Below, piece by piece: positions 8,842 to 63,608 of a stretch of DNA of 64,000 bases. A model generated the notes under the pieces. The model was not told the origin of the DNA, made no database searches, and was given only the letters and a program-made list of their open reading frames with translations. Source of the stretch: Alphaproteobacteria bacterium. GTDB lineage: Bacteria > Pseudomonadota > Alphaproteobacteria > Rickettsiales > JABCZZ01. How positions within the stretch are numbered: position 1 is the first letter of the stretch; the number at the start of each line of letters is the position of its first letter. Location of the stretch: NCBI GenBank assembly GCA_035906055.1, contig JAMIFV010000016.1:2210-66209 (forward strand). Reading direction: 5' to 3'. Made by a program: the position numbers and the translations under genes.

Positions 8842-8969
8842 TAGCGCACTTTCCATTTAATCGTTCGCGTTGTTATCCATCGGTCTCGGTGTGCTCATGT
8901 ACTGCGCGTACACTGCGCGCACCTCGCCTCGGCTGCCTAGCGAACAATTAAAGCGAAAACGCTCTATAG
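8842..8969. mobile_element. MITE-like element, family A copy 1 (128 bp, about 30-bp imperfect terminal inverted repeats)
   Basis: Near-identical to 52411-52538: about ten substitutions and no indels by manual alignment. Left end is tagcgcactttccatttaatcgttcgc. Reverse complement of the right end is tagagcgttttcgctttaattgttcgc. Internal hairpin ggtgtgctcatgtac..gtacactgcgcgcacc. Confidence 0.85.
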
Positions 8970-9002
8970 TCATTTCCTGAATTGGCGCAGTGAATTGCGG
9001 GC

Positions 9003-9072
9003 TCAGCACTCAATAAACTGATGCTTTCTTTTCCTCTTCCGCTTTGCAGGAGGGGGAATGTATAAAATCAGA
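9003..9072. repeat. Degenerate type B palindromic element
   Basis: gcactcaataaactgatgctttcttttcctcttccgctttgcaggaggggga closely parallels the left half of the copies at 54155 and 63403. The ends are decayed. Confidence 0.6.
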
Positions 9073-18433: not shown

Positions 18434-19183
18434 TCATTCACACGTCACGACAAGCGTATAGTTGTCTTCCGCGTTGCCCAGCGTCACCGTGTTATGGCCA
18501 ATTGCCAGTGGCGCGATGTAAAGCCCATAACCACGCCCGATGATCGTATCGTTTACCTTGGTGCCGAAGCGGCTGCCGAGGTCCACTATTACCAGTGCGC
18601 CGTCTTCTATCGCTATCTCGCAGTGCTGACGTGATACCCTTAAGGGAGAGGGCTGCGCTGCGATGGACAGATGCACCATGTCGCGTTTGTTAGCTTCGCC
18701 GCCCTCCGGGTAACCGCCAATGCGGTAAGGCAGGTTGGCAAGGGGCACGCTCACCGGCTTGAATATGTCTTTTATGCGGTCGCCATGCGGGGCGATCCTG
18801 ATGGATTTAATGCTGGTGTTGATAGCCATTTCCGCCTTGGGTTTGGACTTCACCTTACCCAGTTTCATGCGTTCACCCATCATGGTGAACAAAGCCTGCA
18901 TGGACTGCGGCGCCTTATCGATAACGGCTTTGAATTCTTCCGGCGTAATGGCAACGATCGTGCAGGCTTCCAGCGCCCTGGCGGAATAAGGGCGAAGCGC
19001 AAGCGCATCAAAGATTGCCAGTTCACCGAATACTTCGTTCTCATTTACGGTGCGGATGGTGCTGGTCTGCCCACGGTCAGTCTGGTAAAGCTGCACTTTA
19101 CCCGCAATAAGGCAGTAAGCGGTATCAGGAGTATCGCCTTCCTGAAAAATCACAGCGTCTTTCTCAACGGTCTTCTGTGTCAT
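18434..19183 (-). CDS. Cyclic-nucleotide-binding domain plus FHA domain protein
   Basis: cNMP-binding features: VIFQEGDTPDTAYCLIAGKV and FGELAIF...RPYSARA. C-terminal FHA features: VSRQHCEIAIEDGALVIVDLGSRFGTKVND. Confidence 0.75.
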   Translation of the reverse strand: MTQKTVEKDAVIFQEGDTPDTAYCLIAGKVQLYQTDRGQTSTIRTVNENEVFGELAIFDALALRPYSARALEACTIVAITPEEFKAVIDKAPQSMQALFTMMGERMKLGKVKSKPKAEMAINTSIKSIRIAPHGDRIKDIFKPVSVPLANLPYRIGGYPEGGEANKRDMVHLSIAAQPSPLRVSRQHCEIAIEDGALVIVDLGSRFGTKVNDTIIGRGYGLYIAPLAIGHNTVTLGNAEDNYTLVVTCE

Positions 19184-31835: not shown

Positions 31836-34709
31836 TTAATGCGCGTCGCCCCAGTTGGTGGCGAAGCTGGCTTCCACCGTAAGCGGCACGCTCAGATGCG
31901 CGGCGCTTTCCATGATTTTCCTTACATTCGCGGCGACGCTTTCTGCCTGCGCTTCCGGCGCTTCGATAATAAGTTCGTCATGCACCTGCAGCAACATGCG
32001 CGGACCCTCTCCCCCCGCCCTCTCCCTGAAGGGAGAGGGAGTTCCCTCCACCTTTAGGGGGAGGGGTAGGGAGAGGGTCAACTCATGTTCCACTGCTATC
32101 ATCGCGCGTTTGATAATGTCAGCGGCAGTGCCCTGCAACGGCGCATTGATGGCGGCGCGTTCGGAGAAGTTACGCATATTGGGGTTTTTATCGTTGATGC
32201 CCGGCACATGGCAGCGTCGGCCAAATAGCGTTTCCACATAGCCGTGTTCATGTGCGAATTTCTTGGTGCGCTCCATGTAAGCCTGAATGCCGGGATACTG
32301 GGCAAAATACTTTTCAATATACGCCCCCGCCTCGCTGCGCGAGATGCCAAGGCGTGCGGCGAGCCCATGCGCGCTGATGCCGTAGATGATGCCGAAATTG
32401 ATGGTCTTGGCTTTGCGGCGCAGGTCGCCGCTCACCTCCTGCACAGGCACGCCGAACATCTGGCTGGCCGTTATGGCGTGGATGTCGTCGCCGTTCTTAA
32501 ACGCCTCTTTCAGCACGGGAATATCGGCGATATGCGCAAGCAGGCGCAACTCGATCTGTGAATAGTCGGCTGAAATAAGCAGGTTGCCTTGCTCCGCAAC
32601 AAAAGCGTGGCGGATCTTGCGGCCCTCTTCGGTGCGGATGGGGATATTCTGCAGGTTCGGCGAGTTGGAGGAAAGCCTGCCGGTGGAGGTGAGCGCGAGG
32701 GAATAGGACGTATGCACGCGGCGGGTTTGGGGATTGATTTCCTCCGCCAGCGTATCCGTATAGGTGCTTTTGAGTTTGGCAAGCTGGCGCCAGTCGAGAA
32801 TTTTCTGAGCGATAGTATGGCCGCTATCCGCCAGCTCTTCCAGCACTTCGGCACCCGTGCCATAAGCGCCGGTCTTGCCTTTTTTGCCGCCGGGAATGCT
32901 CATTTCGTCGAACAGCACTTCGCCAAGTTGTTTGGGCGAGGCGATGTTGAACGGATGCCCGGCCAGCGCGTGCACTTCCTTTTCCAGTTTCTCCATGCGC
33001 GTGGCAAAGTCGCCAGAGAGTTCAGCGAGTGCCGACTGGTTCACCTTGATGCCGCGCTCTTCCATCGCCACCACCACCGGCACCAGCGGGCGCTCGATGG
33101 TTTCATACAAGGTGAGCATCATCGCATCGGCCACTTGCGGCTTGAGAACCTGCCAGAGGCGGAACGTGACGTCGGCGTCCTCCGCCGCGTAGGCCAGCGC
33201 TTTGTCCAGCGCCACTTCAGCGAACGGAATTCGCGCTTTGCCGGTTCCGGTCACTTGGTCATAGCTGATGGTCTTAAGGCCCAGATAGCGCTCTGCCAGT
33301 TCGTCCATATTATGGTTATGGCTGCCAGCGGCGAGTATGTAGGACAACAGCATCGTGTCTTCCAGCGGGGTAACGCCGATGCCGTATTTCTTCAGTACCA
33401 GCATATCATATTTGATGTTCTGGCCGATCTTGAGCACGGATGCGTCTTCGAGCAGCGGCTTGAGCAGGGAAATAGCGCGTTCAAGCGGCAGCTGTCCCGG
33501 CAGGAGGGGATTGGGCTTTGGGGATTGGACTTTGGGGGAGAACAGGTCCCCGCTGTCCGGGATAGACCCTAATACCTGTTCCCCAATGCCTGAGGCCTTA
33601 TGTGCCACGGGCACATAGCACGCCTTGCCTGCGGTGCTGCATAGCGAGAAGCCCACTAACTCAGCTTGCATGGCATTGAGTGAAGTCGTTTCCGTATCGA
33701 ACGCCACAACGCCTTTTGCGCGGGCGTCATCTATCCAGCGCGCAAGCGCCGCTTCATCCTGCACCAGCTCATAATTTTTAGTCGTGTCATCCCGGCGCAG
33801 GCCTGTATCTCCGGGTGAGGCACCGGCCTTCGCCGGGGTAACGGTGTTTACAAGCCCGAACTTCTCGCTGAATTTGGCGATGAGGGACTTAAAACCCATC
33901 GCGGTGAGGAACGGCATGAGTTTTTCGCTCTCAGGATCGCAGCATGCGAAGGATGTAATCGGCACGGGCAGGGGAATATCGCTCTTCAAACCCACCAGTT
34001 CATAAGACAGCCGCGCTTTGTCGCTGTTCTGTTCGATCGTTTCACGGCGCTTGTTCTGTTTAATGTTGGCAGCATTGGCCAGCACGCCTTCCAGTGTGCC
34101 GAAATTGCCGATGAGCTCCGCCGCTGTCTTAGGGCCGATGCCGGGCACGCCCGGGATATTATCCGACGAATCGCCCATAAGCGATAATACATCGCGCACT
34201 TTTTCCGGCGGCACGCCGAATTTTTCCATCACCTGCTCAGGGCCGATGCTCTTCTGCTTCATGCCGTCATACATGCTGATGCCGGGGCCGATAAGCTGCA
34301 TGAGGTCTTTGTCGGAAGATACGATCACCACTTCCATGCCTTCGGCGCGAGCCGCAGTGGCGTAGGTGGCGATGAGGTCGTCCGCCTCGAATCCGGGCAT
34401 CTCGATGGCGGGCAGGTTAAGCGCCTGCGTGGCCTCGCGCACCAGCGGGAACTGGGGGATAAGGTCTTCCGGCGGCGGCGGGCGGTGGGCTTTGTATTCG
34501 GGATAAATATCGTTGCGGAAGGTCTTGCGGCCCGCGTCGAATATCACGGCGATATGGTCGGCCTTCGCGCCTTCCATAAGCTTGAGCATCATATTGATAA
34601 AGCCATAAACCGCGCCCACGGGAGTGCCTGCCGGGTTGGTGAGCGGCGGCAGGGAATGGTAGGCCCGGAAAATGAAGCCGGAACCGTCGATAAGATAGAG
34701 TTTTTTCAT
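31836..34709 (-). CDS. polA: DNA polymerase I
   Basis: 957 aa. 5'-nuclease N-terminus (LIDGSGFIFRAYH), 3'-5' exonuclease (FDTETTSL), polymerase motifs (DYSQIELRLLAH, RRKAKTINFGIIYG, QVHDELIIE). Contains two palindromic-repeat insertions. Confidence 0.95.
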   Translation of the reverse strand: MKKLYLIDGSGFIFRAYHSLPPLTNPAGTPVGAVYGFINMMLKLMEGAKADHIAVIFDAGRKTFRNDIYPEYKAHRPPPPEDLIPQFPLVREATQALNLPAIEMPGFEADDLIATYATAARAEGMEVVIVSSDKDLMQLIGPGISMYDGMKQKSIGPEQVMEKFGVPPEKVRDVLSLMGDSSDNIPGVPGIGPKTAAELIGNFGTLEGVLANAANIKQNKRRETIEQNSDKARLSYELVGLKSDIPLPVPITSFACCDPESEKLMPFLTAMGFKSLIAKFSEKFGLVNTVTPAKAGASPGDTGLRRDDTTKNYELVQDEAALARWIDDARAKGVVAFDTETTSLNAMQAELVGFSLCSTAGKACYVPVAHKASGIGEQVLGSIPDSGDLFSPKVQSPKPNPLLPGQLPLERAISLLKPLLEDASVLKIGQNIKYDMLVLKKYGIGVTPLEDTMLLSYILAAGSHNHNMDELAERYLGLKTISYDQVTGTGKARIPFAEVALDKALAYAAEDADVTFRLWQVLKPQVADAMMLTLYETIERPLVPVVVAMEERGIKVNQSALAELSGDFATRMEKLEKEVHALAGHPFNIASPKQLGEVLFDEMSIPGGKKGKTGAYGTGAEVLEELADSGHTIAQKILDWRQLAKLKSTYTDTLAEEINPQTRRVHTSYSLALTSTGRLSSNSPNLQNIPIRTEEGRKIRHAFVAEQGNLLISADYSQIELRLLAHIADIPVLKEAFKNGDDIHAITASQMFGVPVQEVSGDLRRKAKTINFGIIYGISAHGLAARLGISRSEAGAYIEKYFAQYPGIQAYMERTKKFAHEHGYVETLFGRRCHVPGINDKNPNMRNFSERAAINAPLQGTAADIIKRAMIAVEHELTLSLPLPLKVEGTPSPFRERAGGEGPRMLLQVHDELIIEAPEAQAESVAANVRKIMESAAHLSVPLTVEASFATNWGDAH
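32003..32079. repeat. Nested palindromic element inserted in frame in the polA polymerase domain
   Basis: gaccctctcccc / ccctctccctgaagggagaggg / ccctccacctttagggggagggg / gggagagggtc. Encodes about TLSLPLPLKVEGTPSPFRERAGGEGP. Boundaries are accurate to a few nt. Confidence 0.8.
33786..33846. repeat. TGTCATCC-type palindromic element in frame in the polA inter-domain linker
   Basis: tgtcatcccggcgcaggcc ... ggccttcgccggggtaac. Encodes VTPAKAGASPGDTGLRRDD on the polA strand. Confidence 0.75.
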
Positions 34710-52410: not shown

Positions 52411-52538
52411 TAGAGCATTTCCCATTTAATCGTTCGCGTCGTTATCCTTCGGTCTCGGTGTGCTCATGTACTACGTGTACACTCCGCGCACCTTGCCTCG
52501 GCTGCCTAGCGAACAATTAAAGCGAAAACGCTCTAGAG
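52411..52538. mobile_element. MITE-like element, family A copy 2
   Basis: Same 128-bp element as 8842-8969. It ends 14 nt before the rapZ ATG, just before the aaggag RBS. Confidence 0.85.
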
Positions 52539-52552
52539 TATTAAAGGAGTCT

Positions 52553-54145: not shown

Positions 54146-54154
54146 AAGCAAGGC

Positions 54155-54225
54155 TCAGGACTGATTAAACTCTTGCTTGCTTTTCCTCTCCCGCTTTGCA
54201 AGAGGAAAAGAGTCATGAGTCCTGA
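54155..54225. repeat. Type B palindromic element
   Basis: tcaggactgattaaactcttgcttgcttttcctctcccgctttgcaagaggaaaagagtcatgagtcctga. Contains the 10-bp stem cttttcctct/agaggaaaag, immediately after the HPr stop. Confidence 0.8.
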
Positions 54226-56773: not shown

Positions 56774-57964
56774 TCAGCCTGTAAAGGACTGTAGCCCCGT
56801 TATGGCACGACCAAGTATCAGCGCATGGATGTCGTGCGTGCCCTCATAGGTGTTCACGCTTTCAAGGTTCATCACATGGCGGATGATATGGTATTCATCG
56901 GCGATGCCGTTGCCCCCGTGCATGTCACGCGCGATACGGGCGATGTCCAGTGCCTTGCCCGCCGAGTTGCGCTTGATGATGGAGATCATCTCCGGCGCGT
57001 AATTATTCTCGTCGATCAGGCGGCCAACGCGCAGGCAGGCCTGCAGGCCGAGCGTGATATCCACCAGCATATCGGCGAGTTTTTTCTGGATGAGCTGGTT
57101 GGCGGCAAGGGGCCTTCCGAACTGCTTGCGTTCCAGCACATAGGAACGTGCCGCCCCGTAGCAGAATTCCGCAGCGCCCAGCGCGCCCCAGCCAATGCCG
57201 TAACGCGCCTTGTTGAGGCAGGAGAACGGCCCCTTTAGGCCGGAAACGTTGAGCATATTGCCTGCGGGCACGAACACGTCGTCCAGCATGATGCCGCCGG
57301 TGGTGGAAGCGCGCAGCGACATCTTGCCTTCAATATGCGGCGTGGAGATGCCTTTCATGGAGCGCTCAAGGATAAACCCGCGTATCGTGCCGTCGGGAAT
57401 CTCCTTGTCGCCGTAAAGCTTGGCCCATACCACGAAGATGTCGGCGATAGGGGAGTTGGTGATCCACATCTTGCTGCCACTGAGTTTATAGCCGCCGTCC
57501 ACCTTCGCGGCGCGCGTCACCATGCTGCCGGGGTCGGAGCCGTGGTCAGGCTCGGTGAGGCCGAAGCAGCCGATGAGTTCCGCCGTGGCAAGGCGCGGCA
57601 GGTATTGCTGTTTTACCTCTTCGCTGCCGAACGTATGGATCGGGTGCATCACGAGGCTCGATTGCACCGAGAGCGCCGAGCGGTAGCCGCTATCCACCCA
57701 TTCCACTTCACGCGCGATGAGGCCGTAAGCCACATGGCTGGTGCCCGCGCAGCCATAGCCTTCGATAGTGGAGCCGAGCATGCCCATTTTACCCATTTCA
57801 CGCAGTATCTGCGGATCGAACTTCTCATGGCGGTTGGCTTCAATGATGCCGGGGAACAGCACATCACGCGCAAAGCGGCGCGCGGCGTCCTGCACCAGTT
57901 TTTCTTCTTCCGTCAGTTGCTCGTGGAGCAAAAGCGGGTCATCCCACAACAGAGCCTGTTTCAT
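56774..57964 (-). CDS. gcdH: Glutaryl-CoA dehydrogenase-type acyl-CoA dehydrogenase
   Basis: 396 aa. [13 protein letters not shown] and [18 protein letters not shown]. Confidence 0.85.
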
Positions 57965-58215
57965 AATACGATATTCACAATCGAACCACGGTCCCAGTAA
58001 AGACCGCGGGCAAGCGCGGCGAGCGCACGTTCCACCAGCGACTGCATGGCTTCCGGCGTAGGGATGACATTGCGCGCAGGCCTTGGCGGCGGCATCAGTT
58101 CTTCGCGGTCGAATTCCTTGCTGCCGTCTTTGTCGGCGGATTTTCCCGTCACCGGCTTGCGCACGGCAGGCTTTACACTTAAGCCGCCTAGTCCAGTAGA
58201 AATAAACTCAGCCAT
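57961..58215 (-). CDS. Hypothetical small protein translationally coupled to gcdH
   Basis: 84-aa ORF whose TGA overlaps the gcdH ATG (ATGA). No family recognised. Confidence 0.35.
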
Positions 58216-58284: not shown

Positions 58285-59085
58285 ATGAAAACAGGCACTA
58301 TCGTTATTCTCACCGGCGCAGGTATTTCGGCGGAGTCGGGTGTATCGACCTTCCGCGACAATAACGGCCTGTGGTGCAACCACCGCATTGAAGATGTGGC
58401 GACGCCGGAAGGATTCATGCGCAACCCTGCGCTGGTGCAGCAATTCTATAACCAGCGTCGCGCGCAGCTTGCTGAGGTAAAGCCCAACCTTGCGCATGAA
58501 GCACTGGCGGAACTGGCAGAGAAATGGCCGGGCAGGTTTTTGCTCATCACCCAGAATGTAGATGATCTGCATGACCGCGCATTATTAGGGCGCTGCATCA
58601 CCCCCTCACCCCAACCCTCTCCCCGCCGGGGAGAGGGAGGCGAGCAAAGCGAGCGGGCGAGGGGGCATTTCGAGCTTATCCATCTGCATGGTGAACTGGG
58701 CAAGGTGCGCTGCACCGATACAGGCTCCATTTTTGACTGGACGGGTGATGTTAAGGCGGAATCACAATGCGGTTGTTGCAATGAGATAGGCACGCTGCGC
58801 CCGCATATCGTGTGGTTCGGCGAGATGCCGCTGGAAATGCCAAAAATATACAATGCGCTGGCGCAGTGCGACCTGTTTATCTCCATCGGCACGTCGGGTA
58901 ATGTGTACCCGGCAGCAGGCTTCGTGCAGGAAGTGCGCCGCAACGGGCGCAATGCGCGCACGGTGGAGCTAAACCTTGAACCTTCGCAGGGTTATTCGCT
59001 GTTCGAGGAACGCATCTACGGCAAAGCCACCGAGATAGTGCCGGAGTTTGTAAGAGCGGTGCTTGCAAATGTATCACAATTGTGA
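58285..59085 (+). CDS. cobB: NAD-dependent protein deacylase (Sir2/CobB)
   Basis: [28 protein letters not shown], a Cys pair (CGCC) and [14 protein letters not shown]. Carries an in-frame repeat insertion. Confidence 0.9.
58583..58672. repeat. Palindromic element inserted in frame in cobB
   Basis: ccccctcaccccaaccctctccccgccggggagagggaggcgagcaaagcgagcgggcgaggggg. Encodes about [30 protein letters not shown] between [10 protein letters not shown] and ELIHLHGEL. Boundaries are approximate. Confidence 0.75.
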
Positions 59086-59097
59086 TACGTTAAGTTT

Positions 59098-59358
59098 ATG
59101 GAAAAAACACAAGTTATTCATGCGCGCATCGATCCTTCCCTCAAGCTTGCCTCGGAAGAGGTGTTTGCCGCGCTTGGCTTGACAATGGCGGACGCTATCC
59201 GCCTTTTCCTTAAGCAGGTGCAATTGCATGAGGGGCTGCCGTTTGACGTTAAAATTCCCAATGCGGCCAGCCGCAAGGCGCTAAAAGAGGCGCGAAGCAG
59301 AAAAACTGTTAACCGTTATAATGATTTTGCAGCATTGCGTAAGAAACTAAAGGTTTGA
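59098..59358 (+). CDS. RelB/DinJ-family antitoxin
   Basis: 86 aa. IHARIDPSLKLASEEVFAALGLTMADAIRLFLKQV...LPFDVKIPN. Confidence 0.8.
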   Translation: MEKTQVIHARIDPSLKLASEEVFAALGLTMADAIRLFLKQVQLHEGLPFDVKIPNAASRKALKEARSRKTVNRYNDFAALRKKLKV

Positions 59359-59627
59359 GTATGCAGGTGCGTTCAACGAAGCAGTTTGAACGTGACCTGA
59401 AGCGTGTATCGAAACGCCATAAAAATATAGATAAGCTGCATGTAGTGGTGGATATGCTGCAATCTGGCAGAATGCTGCCAGCACGCTACAGGCTGCATGC
59501 CTTGAAAGGTGAATGGGTGCCTGCGCTTGAATGCCATATCGAGCCTGATTGGTTGCTGGTATTTGAAGCGTACGATGAATACATCATGCTCCTGCGCACT
59601 GGCACGCATTCGGACTTATTCGGATAA
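59355..59627 (+). CDS. YafQ/RelE-family mRNA interferase toxin
   Basis: 90 aa. FERDLKR...HALKGEW...ECHIEPDWLLVF...LLRTGTHSDLF. The start overlaps the antitoxin stop. Confidence 0.8.
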   Translation: MSMQVRSTKQFERDLKRVSKRHKNIDKLHVVVDMLQSGRMLPARYRLHALKGEWVPALECHIEPDWLLVFEAYDEYIMLLRTGTHSDLFG

Positions 59628-63366: not shown

Positions 63367-63402
63367 TCTGCCAAAAACGACCCCGTGACAAGTCTAGGCT
63401 AA

Positions 63403-63608
63403 GGACTCATTAAATTATTGCTTTCTTTTCCTCTCCCTTTGAGGGAGAGGACGCGTTTGCCTTGGGTTTAGCTTTAGCTAAGCCCTTAGGCAAACCGAGG
63501 TGAGGGGGCATTTACATTCACCCTCACCCAGCTTCGGCTAAGCTGCTGCGCTGCAAAGCCTGCGCAACCCTCTCCCGCTTTGCAGGAGAGGGGATTTATG
63601 AGTCCTGA
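63403..63608. repeat. Composite type B element: four consecutive hairpins bracketed by GGACTCAT/ATGAGTCC
   Basis: The four hairpins are cctctccctttgagggagagg, gtttgccttgg..cccttaggcaaac, ggtgagggggcatttacattcaccctcacc and ccctctcccgctttgcaggagagggg. Confidence 0.8.

Follow-up and report, generated by a model that had tools for sequence, protein, structure and literature searches.

The gene cobB on an uncultured alphaproteobacterial contig (JAMIFV010000016.1, positions 2,210 to 66,209; this whole stretch of 64,000 nucleotides (nt) is referred to below as the window) encodes an NAD-dependent protein deacylase of the sirtuin type, and a GC-rich palindromic repeat has become part of its coding sequence. 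Judged by its sequence, we find that this insert belongs to the repeat family known as BoxC in E. coli, as the PIT element, and as TM_ECO, an intrastrand triplex motif (TM; Holder et al, 2015, NAR 43:10126; PMC4666352). An initial annotation of the window had noticed the palindrome but had not recognised its family. We consider it very probable that the insert is a tolerated in-frame insertion of this dispersed repeat, selfish or neutral in itself and filtered by selection.

The family assignment is based on a direct match to the published consensus, 5'-CCCTCNCCC N3-6 GGGNGAGGG N3 GGGNGAGGG[G/T/C/-]-3' (PMC4666352), to which positions 58637..58603 of the minus strand conform exactly. The same motif was counted in 3,610 copies in 262 proteobacterial genomes and had been treated in earlier work by Bergler, Bachellier, Hoyne and Maher, as cited in that paper (PMC4666352). 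When the 71-nt insert region was used as a blastn query, all 5,426 complete E. coli genomes gave matches (median, 17 places per genome), the best place being 80-90% identical in 5,388 E. coli records. None of the 10 listed E. coli matches had an annotated feature beneath it. This distribution, outside annotated features and at a median of 17 places, is consistent with the 23 copies described in strain MG1655, all of them intergenic and with five of the sites made up of inverted pairs (PMC4666352). Within the window, three TM-type motifs were found at two loci, cobB and polA, versus none in 30 shuffles searched with the relaxed form of the motif, and the core patterns of the cobB insert did not occur in any of 100 dinucleotide-preserving shuffles of the window.

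The cobB copy is composite, its one hairpin being used both by a canonical TM (minus strand) and by a long-loop TM (plus strand) (coordinates are collected in Table 1). Nested hairpins had been proposed in the initial annotation, and both are present, the inner pair being unbroken and the outer carrying one mismatch. The right half of the element reads GGGAGAGGG AG GCGAGC AAA GCGAGC GGGCGAGGG, and the template (minus) strand contains GGGG-AGA-GGG-TT-GGGG-TGA-GGGGG, a canonical run prone to form G-quadruplexes (G4) or triplexes. The element is free of stops in five of its six reading frames, so that an insertion with a length divisible by three is likely to be read through. Its folding-energy z-score is weak (-1.6 to -2.05 as DNA, -2.9 as RNA) because the runs of C and of G still pair after shuffling, and the case against chance therefore rests on the specific motif rather than on energy. 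Full-length composites, about 92% identical over 61-63 nt, occur on six other contigs (L151, L195, L219, L221, L235 and L242) with flanks unlike those of the window, which indicates that the element is a separate unit some 62 nt in length (58603-58663; the full outer arms extend it to 58601-58665). An Rfam search of the whole window at gathering thresholds gave zero matches, and an E-value search of positions 58300-58900 gave only weak eukaryotic miRNA and snoRNA noise. An intrinsic terminator or promoter was also considered for the insert and rejected, as neither was found there.

Related copies were found far outside E. coli. Both of the collection scans described here give lower bounds, and their taxonomic samples are arbitrary. 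Scanning a genome collection with a pattern for the left half of the element (CCTC N0-1 CCCC N2-3 CCCTCTCCCYG) returned at least 120 loci (L012-L131) from many phyla. The published count covered proteobacterial genomes only (PMC4666352), whereas the taxa among the matches listed here include Verrucomicrobiota, Planctomycetota, Chloroflexota, Acidobacteriota and others as well as Alpha-, Beta-, Gamma- and Deltaproteobacteria. Of the 129 matches listed, 112 had the second hairpin arm as well, a feature that the pattern left free, and 53 conformed to a strict published pattern. A metagenome scan with the right half (GGGAGAGGG N1-3 GCGAGC N2-4 GCGAGC) found the GCGAGC-NNN-GCGAGC module between GGGAGAGGG and GGGTGAGGG in at least 142 matches (L135-L254). 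Among the matches listed there, the module in place of the 3-nt second loop is a common TM variant. One match, L171, was discarded as a chance occurrence inside a real gene, without a TM. We found no description of the GCGAGC-NNN-GCGAGC variant in the literature. For in-frame BoxC/PIT copies, the literature covered, mostly outside subscription journals, held nothing beyond PMC4666352, an absence that is not proof.

Two further observations came from these scans. Among the matches listed (L012-L131 and L135-L254), a BoxC/TM motif of 40-62 nt is conserved nearly base for base across many phyla. In addition, the metagenome contig L166 (ERZ1026800 NODE-1377) carries 12 copies of the long-loop variant between about 6124 and 9659 and beyond, at a regular spacing of 185-226 nt.

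Comparison with orthologs showed that the insert is peculiar to this lineage. As the initial annotation had described, the palindromic repeat separates the QNVDxLH motif from the catalytic HG and keeps the frame: the open reading frame (ORF) runs through it uninterrupted, and the quoted peptide was reproduced. The ortholog alignment that the annotation had called for was run: the insert is absent from the closest CobB proteins, and relatives have no conserved equivalent loop. The window protein is the sole member of its 90% cluster. Its nearest orthologs, P0002 and P0003, are identical to it at 0.91 and 0.90 of positions outside the loop, have the modal loop with no insert, and are encoded at syntenic loci, which share with the window the 84-residue gene upstream of cobB and, downstream of it, the genes of AhpC type and for a glycosyltransferase. 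The best named relatives are 60-66% identical and are labelled as Rickettsiales, Alphaproteobacteria or Pseudomonadota metagenome-assembled genomes.

The size of the insert depends on the reference. Residues 4-99 and 100-232 of the E. coli CobB chain (1s5p) align contiguously to residues 1-99 and 127-261 of the window protein, leaving exactly 27 residues without a counterpart. Against the true orthologs, the first estimate of roughly 30 extra residues is too high: the net gain is 20 amino acids (60 nt), because the CobB proteins of this clade already have a loop of nine residues, HAGRNNQKG, at the insert position. For the same clade, the statement that CobB passes 'almost directly' from helix to strand does not apply. 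Two independent Logan assemblies (SRR18360465 and SRR18360466) contain the gene, insert included, without a single nucleotide difference, and it is thus not an assembly artefact.

In all other respects the protein resembles a normal deacylase. A frameshift in cobB was looked for and none was found, and the SIR2 domain, the QNxD and HG motifs, the zinc cysteines and a CobB-like fold are all present. The translation matches SIR2 of Pfam at 3e-42 and the Sir2 deacetylase equivalog NF001755 of NCBIfam with 342 bits (cut-off 318), the insert splitting both profile matches into two. Every column that is invariant in an alignment of 120 CobB sequences, this protein included, is kept in it. The dN/dS ratio of cobB against P0002 and P0003 is 0.086-0.090 at a dS of about 0.95, and that between the two orthologs themselves is 0.058; the values for cobB average over the whole branch and not over the period since insertion alone.

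An AlphaFold model built from the 120-sequence alignment had a mean pLDDT of 90.7, with a confident sirtuin core, and resembled E. coli CobB (6rxj/1s5p) with a TM-score of 0.90. In this model helix 95-100 is followed by coil 101-127, strand 128-133 and then His135, and the insert region has no secondary structure (block mean pLDDT 79, 56 and 65). Rossmann folds bind cofactor and substrate at the C-terminal ends of their strands. Since the insert feeds into the N-terminal end of its strand, it would be expected on the other face of the sheet, away from the active site, and the model thus suggests a loop far from the catalytic centre. The insert had initially been placed close to the active-site histidine, which holds only along the sequence; in the model, the coil meets the N-terminal end of the strand and His135 lies past its C-terminal end.

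The second locus in the window supports the assignment of the two insertions to one family, as had been claimed: the palindrome in polA (identified by Pfam DNA_pol_A) shares 40 nt with the cobB element at 80% identity and has the same motif pattern. Two inverted TM-like motifs make up this palindrome, which sits in frame immediately ahead of the QVHDE motif and has a folding z-score of -5.2 as DNA. The closest polA ortholog, P0123 (85% identical), lacks the palindrome, which replaces 12 nt of the P0123 sequence and adds a net 63 nt, or 21 amino acids. We considered whether both genes had gained the same length and rejected this; with +60 nt (20 amino acids) in cobB and +63 nt in polA, there is no shared unit size. 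Both uninserted sites, the cobB site at about 2700-2745 of the orthologous locus L003 and the polA loop of L132, contain GCGC..TCAC (CCGCGCTCACGCTGG and TGCGCGATTCACAGG), which could reflect chance or a target preference.

The loop occupied in cobB has also been filled repeatedly in other lineages, by other sequences. The modal loop is found in 90 of the 120 best CobB homologs, 10 of the 120 (about 8%) have a loop at least 9 residues longer than the mode, and the aligned loop region of the family ranges from 2 to 33 residues. At the DNA level, five other expanded loops (P0120, P0108, P0026, P0072 and P0083) contain strong hairpins, with z-scores of -3.2 to -8.6, each different and unrelated in sequence to the window insert (for example GTCATTGCGAG..., GTCATCCTGAGCG..., CCCGCGAAAGCGGG... 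and GAGTGCTGAGTGCTGAG...). The two uninserted orthologs have no such hairpin in the loop. In other lineages the CobB loop tolerates inserts of up to about 23 amino acids, and the P0083 protein is encoded on at least 8 contigs. The presence of unrelated inserts at the same CobB loop in some 8% of relatives argues for a permissive site rather than for a functional change.

Similar behaviour was seen in other genes. The loop at the polA site reaches 22-44 residues in 28 of 120 homologs, versus a mode of 13-15, and two distant PolA homologs, P0164 and P0240, have inverted TM-like pairs there (z -6.8 and -9.0). Elsewhere, TM motifs form in-frame parts of the genes for IleRS, RecN, an Eco57I-type methylase, Mfd and two UvrD proteins from other bacteria (L094, L104, L113, L013, L183 and L240). 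Pfam domains run across the insert, or are split by it, in all of these except Mfd, where it falls between two domains. The UvrD inserts lie between the DEYQD and VGDDDQ motifs, and their independence is doubtful, as the two proteins are close relatives. Many further ORFs spanning repeat copies in GC-rich genomes proved to be Arg/Ala/Gly/Pro-rich artefacts, and only those with Pfam support were kept. The site occupied in CobB, PolA and UvrD is in each case a loop that leads from a helix into the strand bearing catalytic residues.

Table 1. Positions of the cobB insert, its parts and related features (window coordinates unless a locus is named)
Feature	Positions	Strand	Basis or remark
cobB ORF, NAD-dependent protein deacylase (sirtuin)	58285..59085	+	266 amino acids, intact; translation, profile matches, AlphaFold model
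QNVDDLH motif, residues 90-96	58552..58572	+	residues 95-100 helical in model
27 residues (100-126) without counterpart in E. coli CobB	58582..58662	+	alignment to 1s5p
Inserted repeat element including both outer arms	58601..58665		65 nt
61-nt core, common to copies elsewhere	58603..58663		alignment to other contigs, E. coli matches
Outer pair	58601-58611 / 58655-58665		10/11 complementary, one mismatch (read from sequence)
Inner hairpin, perfect 11-bp stem, 1-nt loop	58615..58637		arms 58615-58625 / 58627-58637, 11/11 complementary
Canonical TM_ECO/BoxC motif	58603..58637	-	CCCTCTCCC CGGCG GGGAGAGGG TTG GGGTGAGGG, then G; regular-expression match
TM variant with long second loop, same hairpin	58615..58663	+	CCCTCTCCC CGCCG GGGAGAGGG (AGGCGAGCAAAGCGAGC) GGGCGAGGG
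GCGAGC-AAA-GCGAGC direct-repeat module (long loop 2)	58638..58654	+	metagenome matches with the same module
Catalytic His135 codon (HG motif)	58687..58689	+	directly after strand 128-133
polA sister insertion, 75-nt palindrome of two inverted TM-like motifs	32004..32078		in polA 31836-34709 (-)
Palindromes at the CobB loop in five other lineages	L007 1209-1304; L008 537-638; L009 1095-1199; L010 561-644; L011 10295-10366		unrelated repeat families

These results are consistent with a model whereby a copy of a dispersed, non-coding, GC-rich BoxC/PIT/TM_ECO repeat landed in cobB in this lineage, presumably after its split from the closest sampled relatives. The incoming copy would have consisted of one shared hairpin with third-strand segments on both sides and the GCGAGC-NNN-GCGAGC module. 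Copies that land in frame in permissive loops would be those that survive selection. Here the insert would have persisted because the net change in length is a multiple of three (+60 nt), because the element is largely free of stops, and because it occupies a helix-to-strand loop at the N-terminal end of a Rossmann strand, where length already varies among sirtuins. Read-through would yield a Pro/Ser- and then Gly/Glu/Arg-rich, probably disordered loop of 20-27 residues on an otherwise normal deacylase. The enzyme presumably stays active, and the insert is likely to be neutral or nearly so. Insertion was perhaps coupled to a small deletion or repair event, as hinted at by the 12 nt replaced in polA and by the altered flanks in cobB. 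Such coupling would fit the local genomic instability reported around TM sites, which have no transposon link (PMC4666352).

Several points weigh against this account. The host copies known are those within the 64-kb window, namely three TM-type motifs at two loci, and the host genome is not among the matches listed for the left-half scan. The left flank of the insert (58582-58600, encoding LLGRCIT) differs from the ortholog HAGRNN by more than simple point changes, so that the boundaries of the insertion are uncertain by a few codons, and with a dS of about 0.95 separating the window gene from its nearest relatives, the insertion can be dated only loosely. Finally, the perfectly kept TM half fits a recent insertion and selection on structure alike.

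That perfect preservation, with its unbroken stem and exact consensus match, would also fit a functional insert, with a hairpin, a purine-motif triplex or a template-strand G-quadruplex tuning cobB transcription, translation or mRNA stability, or with the disordered loop providing a new interaction or mode of regulation. The G4/triplex-prone run on the template strand, the very stable triplexes formed by TM oligonucleotides in vitro (PMC4666352), and the recurrence of insertions at the same CobB, PolA and UvrD loops all point in this direction. However, the E. coli motif has neither promoter nor terminator activity and gives no triplex footprint in vivo (PMC4666352), the insert has no terminator-like site and no Rfam match, and the closest orthologs do without it. 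Furthermore, the inserts of other lineages at the CobB loop are unrelated in sequence, which a permissive site explains better, and we regard a function for the insert as improbable. It is also highly improbable that the insertion crippled the enzyme and left cobB at an early stage of pseudogene decay, before any stops have arisen. The position between two catalytic motifs in the sequence, and dN/dS values for the window pairs that slightly exceed that of the ortholog pair, might suggest as much, but the ratio is still about 0.09, the ORF is intact, the invariant columns are all kept, and the confident core of the model superposes on E. coli CobB. Moreover, the same loop carries inserts of up to about 23 amino acids elsewhere, including that of P0083 with its at least 8 contigs.

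We can hardly credit the further proposal that no repeat was inserted at all, and that a native loop expanded locally, an ancestral loop was lost in relatives, or the assembly is chimeric; it is already effectively refuted. In its favour, the family does show loops of 2 to 33 residues, and palindromes are easily lost by precise deletion. Against it, copies with unrelated flanks share the 61-nt core at about 92% identity, the BoxC copies of E. coli share it at 80-90%, a published repeat consensus is matched exactly, and three independent assemblies agree at every base. A broader idea is that the helix-to-strand loops ahead of the catalytic strands of CobB, PolA and UvrD do not merely tolerate structured repeats but are preferred sites of their landing or retention, and that the host group is a second, GC-rich counterpart of Rickettsia in which BoxC/TM and unrelated palindromes repeatedly write new loops into housekeeping enzymes. 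This seems to us rather unlikely; were it correct, the process might be directed by structure or repair, or might bring a regulatory or protein-level benefit.

A tolerated BoxC/TM insertion, the reading we prefer, can be set against known repeat systems. The likeness to the E. coli family extends from the exact minus-strand consensus match and the 80-90% identity to the occurrence of singles and of inverted pairs (polA here, five sites in MG1655). Neither has a known transposase gene associated with it, and to our knowledge none has been found for the BoxC/PIT/TM family as a whole. In contrast to the 23 of 23 copies that are intergenic in MG1655, all three TM-type motifs of the window are inside genes and in frame, and the intergenic hairpins of the window are plain CCTCTCCC only. 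Being intergenic describes the E. coli copies and is not a sequence feature that defines the family. The cobB copy also differs in being composite, a canonical TM (-) and a long-loop GCGAGC-NNN-GCGAGC variant (+) on one hairpin.

The closest parallel in behaviour is to the Rickettsia palindromic elements (RPEs), reportedly described by Ogata et al. in 2000 (Science 290:347) and again in 2002. Like these, the window elements are non-coding palindromes that lie in conserved housekeeping genes without loss of frame, are presumably translated as extra peptide, and sit at points that the fold can accommodate; they are lineage-specific when compared with orthologs, and their host is also an alphaproteobacterium. 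However, RPEs measure about 105-150 nt (reviewed in PMC10969869 and PMC3184786), whereas the cobB and polA elements are 61-75 nt long, very GC-rich and match BoxC/TM. The BoxC/TM element is thus set apart from RPEs by size and composition, and it is spread across phyla rather than confined to one genus.

REP/BIME sequences, as described in PMC3733652, are hairpin repeats mobilised by RAYT and tagged with GTAG/CGTC. They resemble the cobB element as short GC-rich hairpin repeats with many dispersed copies in proteobacterial genomes, but the cobB element has a third-strand segment attached to its hairpin. A REP/RAYT identity was rejected, since neither GTAG/CGTC nor the complement occurs in 58590-58675. 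Bacterial MITEs also occur in frame in genes (ERIC, Correia, Coxiella QMITE and pneumococcal BOX/RUP/SPRITE; PMC10969869, PMC5896051, PMC3184786) and are likewise small, non-autonomous repeats able to fuse in frame with host ORFs. However, the cobB and polA elements are much shorter than typical MITEs and have no known parent insertion sequence. Outer arms are present at 58601-58611 and 58655-58665, and the cobB and polA copies are not flanked by a shared duplication. A MITE identity seems unlikely, as there is no consistent target-site duplication at cobB or polA and the polA copy replaces 12 nt.

Taken by itself, the cobB insertion is an ordinary event, one more repeat tolerated in a protein loop; its mode of action is already known from RPEs and its sequence family from BoxC/PIT/TM. 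What is modestly new is the location of BoxC/TM in frame in genes, the composite form with a shared hairpin, and the extension of the motif well beyond Proteobacteria. Modestly new, too, is the repeated colonisation of the same loops by unrelated palindromes in an uncultured alphaproteobacterial group. A repeat that had been described as strictly intergenic in E. coli can evidently sit in frame in essential genes, the genes concerned being cobB and polA in the window and those for IleRS, RecN, Mfd, UvrD and the methylase elsewhere. The repeated hits on the same loops by unrelated palindromes mark out where sirtuins and family-A polymerases naturally tolerate insertions, and the comparison of filled with empty orthologous sites offers a route to how an element that crosses phyla is copied.

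The window also contains other repeats. An intergenic cluster of TM-like pieces lies at 63490-63593, where GCAAACCGAGGTGAGGGGGCATTT is similar to the cobB insert at its right end, with the CATTT that follows (a weak match, E 0.26), and is succeeded by a GGTGAGGG/CCCTCACC hairpin and then by a CCCTCTCCC hairpin. A second, mainly intergenic repeat family, with no Rfam match, occurs at 8842-9063, 52411-52539, 54151-54215, 63396-63451, 63569-63599 and 1032-1062. Its 129-nt unit is 92% identical between the copies at 8842 and 52411, and its units of 31-56 nt end in CCTCTCCC-GCTTTGCA-GGAGAGG hairpins. A hairpin at 18637-18652 (CCCTTAAGGGAGAGGG) in the ORF at 18434-19183 was dropped, being too short and not obviously an insertion.

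Two features of the cobB neighbourhood were also recorded. An ORF of 84 amino acids directly upstream (57961-58215, minus strand) keeps its position in all syntenic loci fetched (L001-L006) and has no Pfam match. Downstream, a RelB antitoxin/YafQ toxin pair (59098-59358 and 59355-59627) separates cobB from the gene for the AhpC-type peroxiredoxin. At the orthologous loci L003 and L005, cobB is followed directly by AhpC with no such pair between them, and the pair is therefore read as a probable lineage-specific gain, or else as one lost in the relatives.

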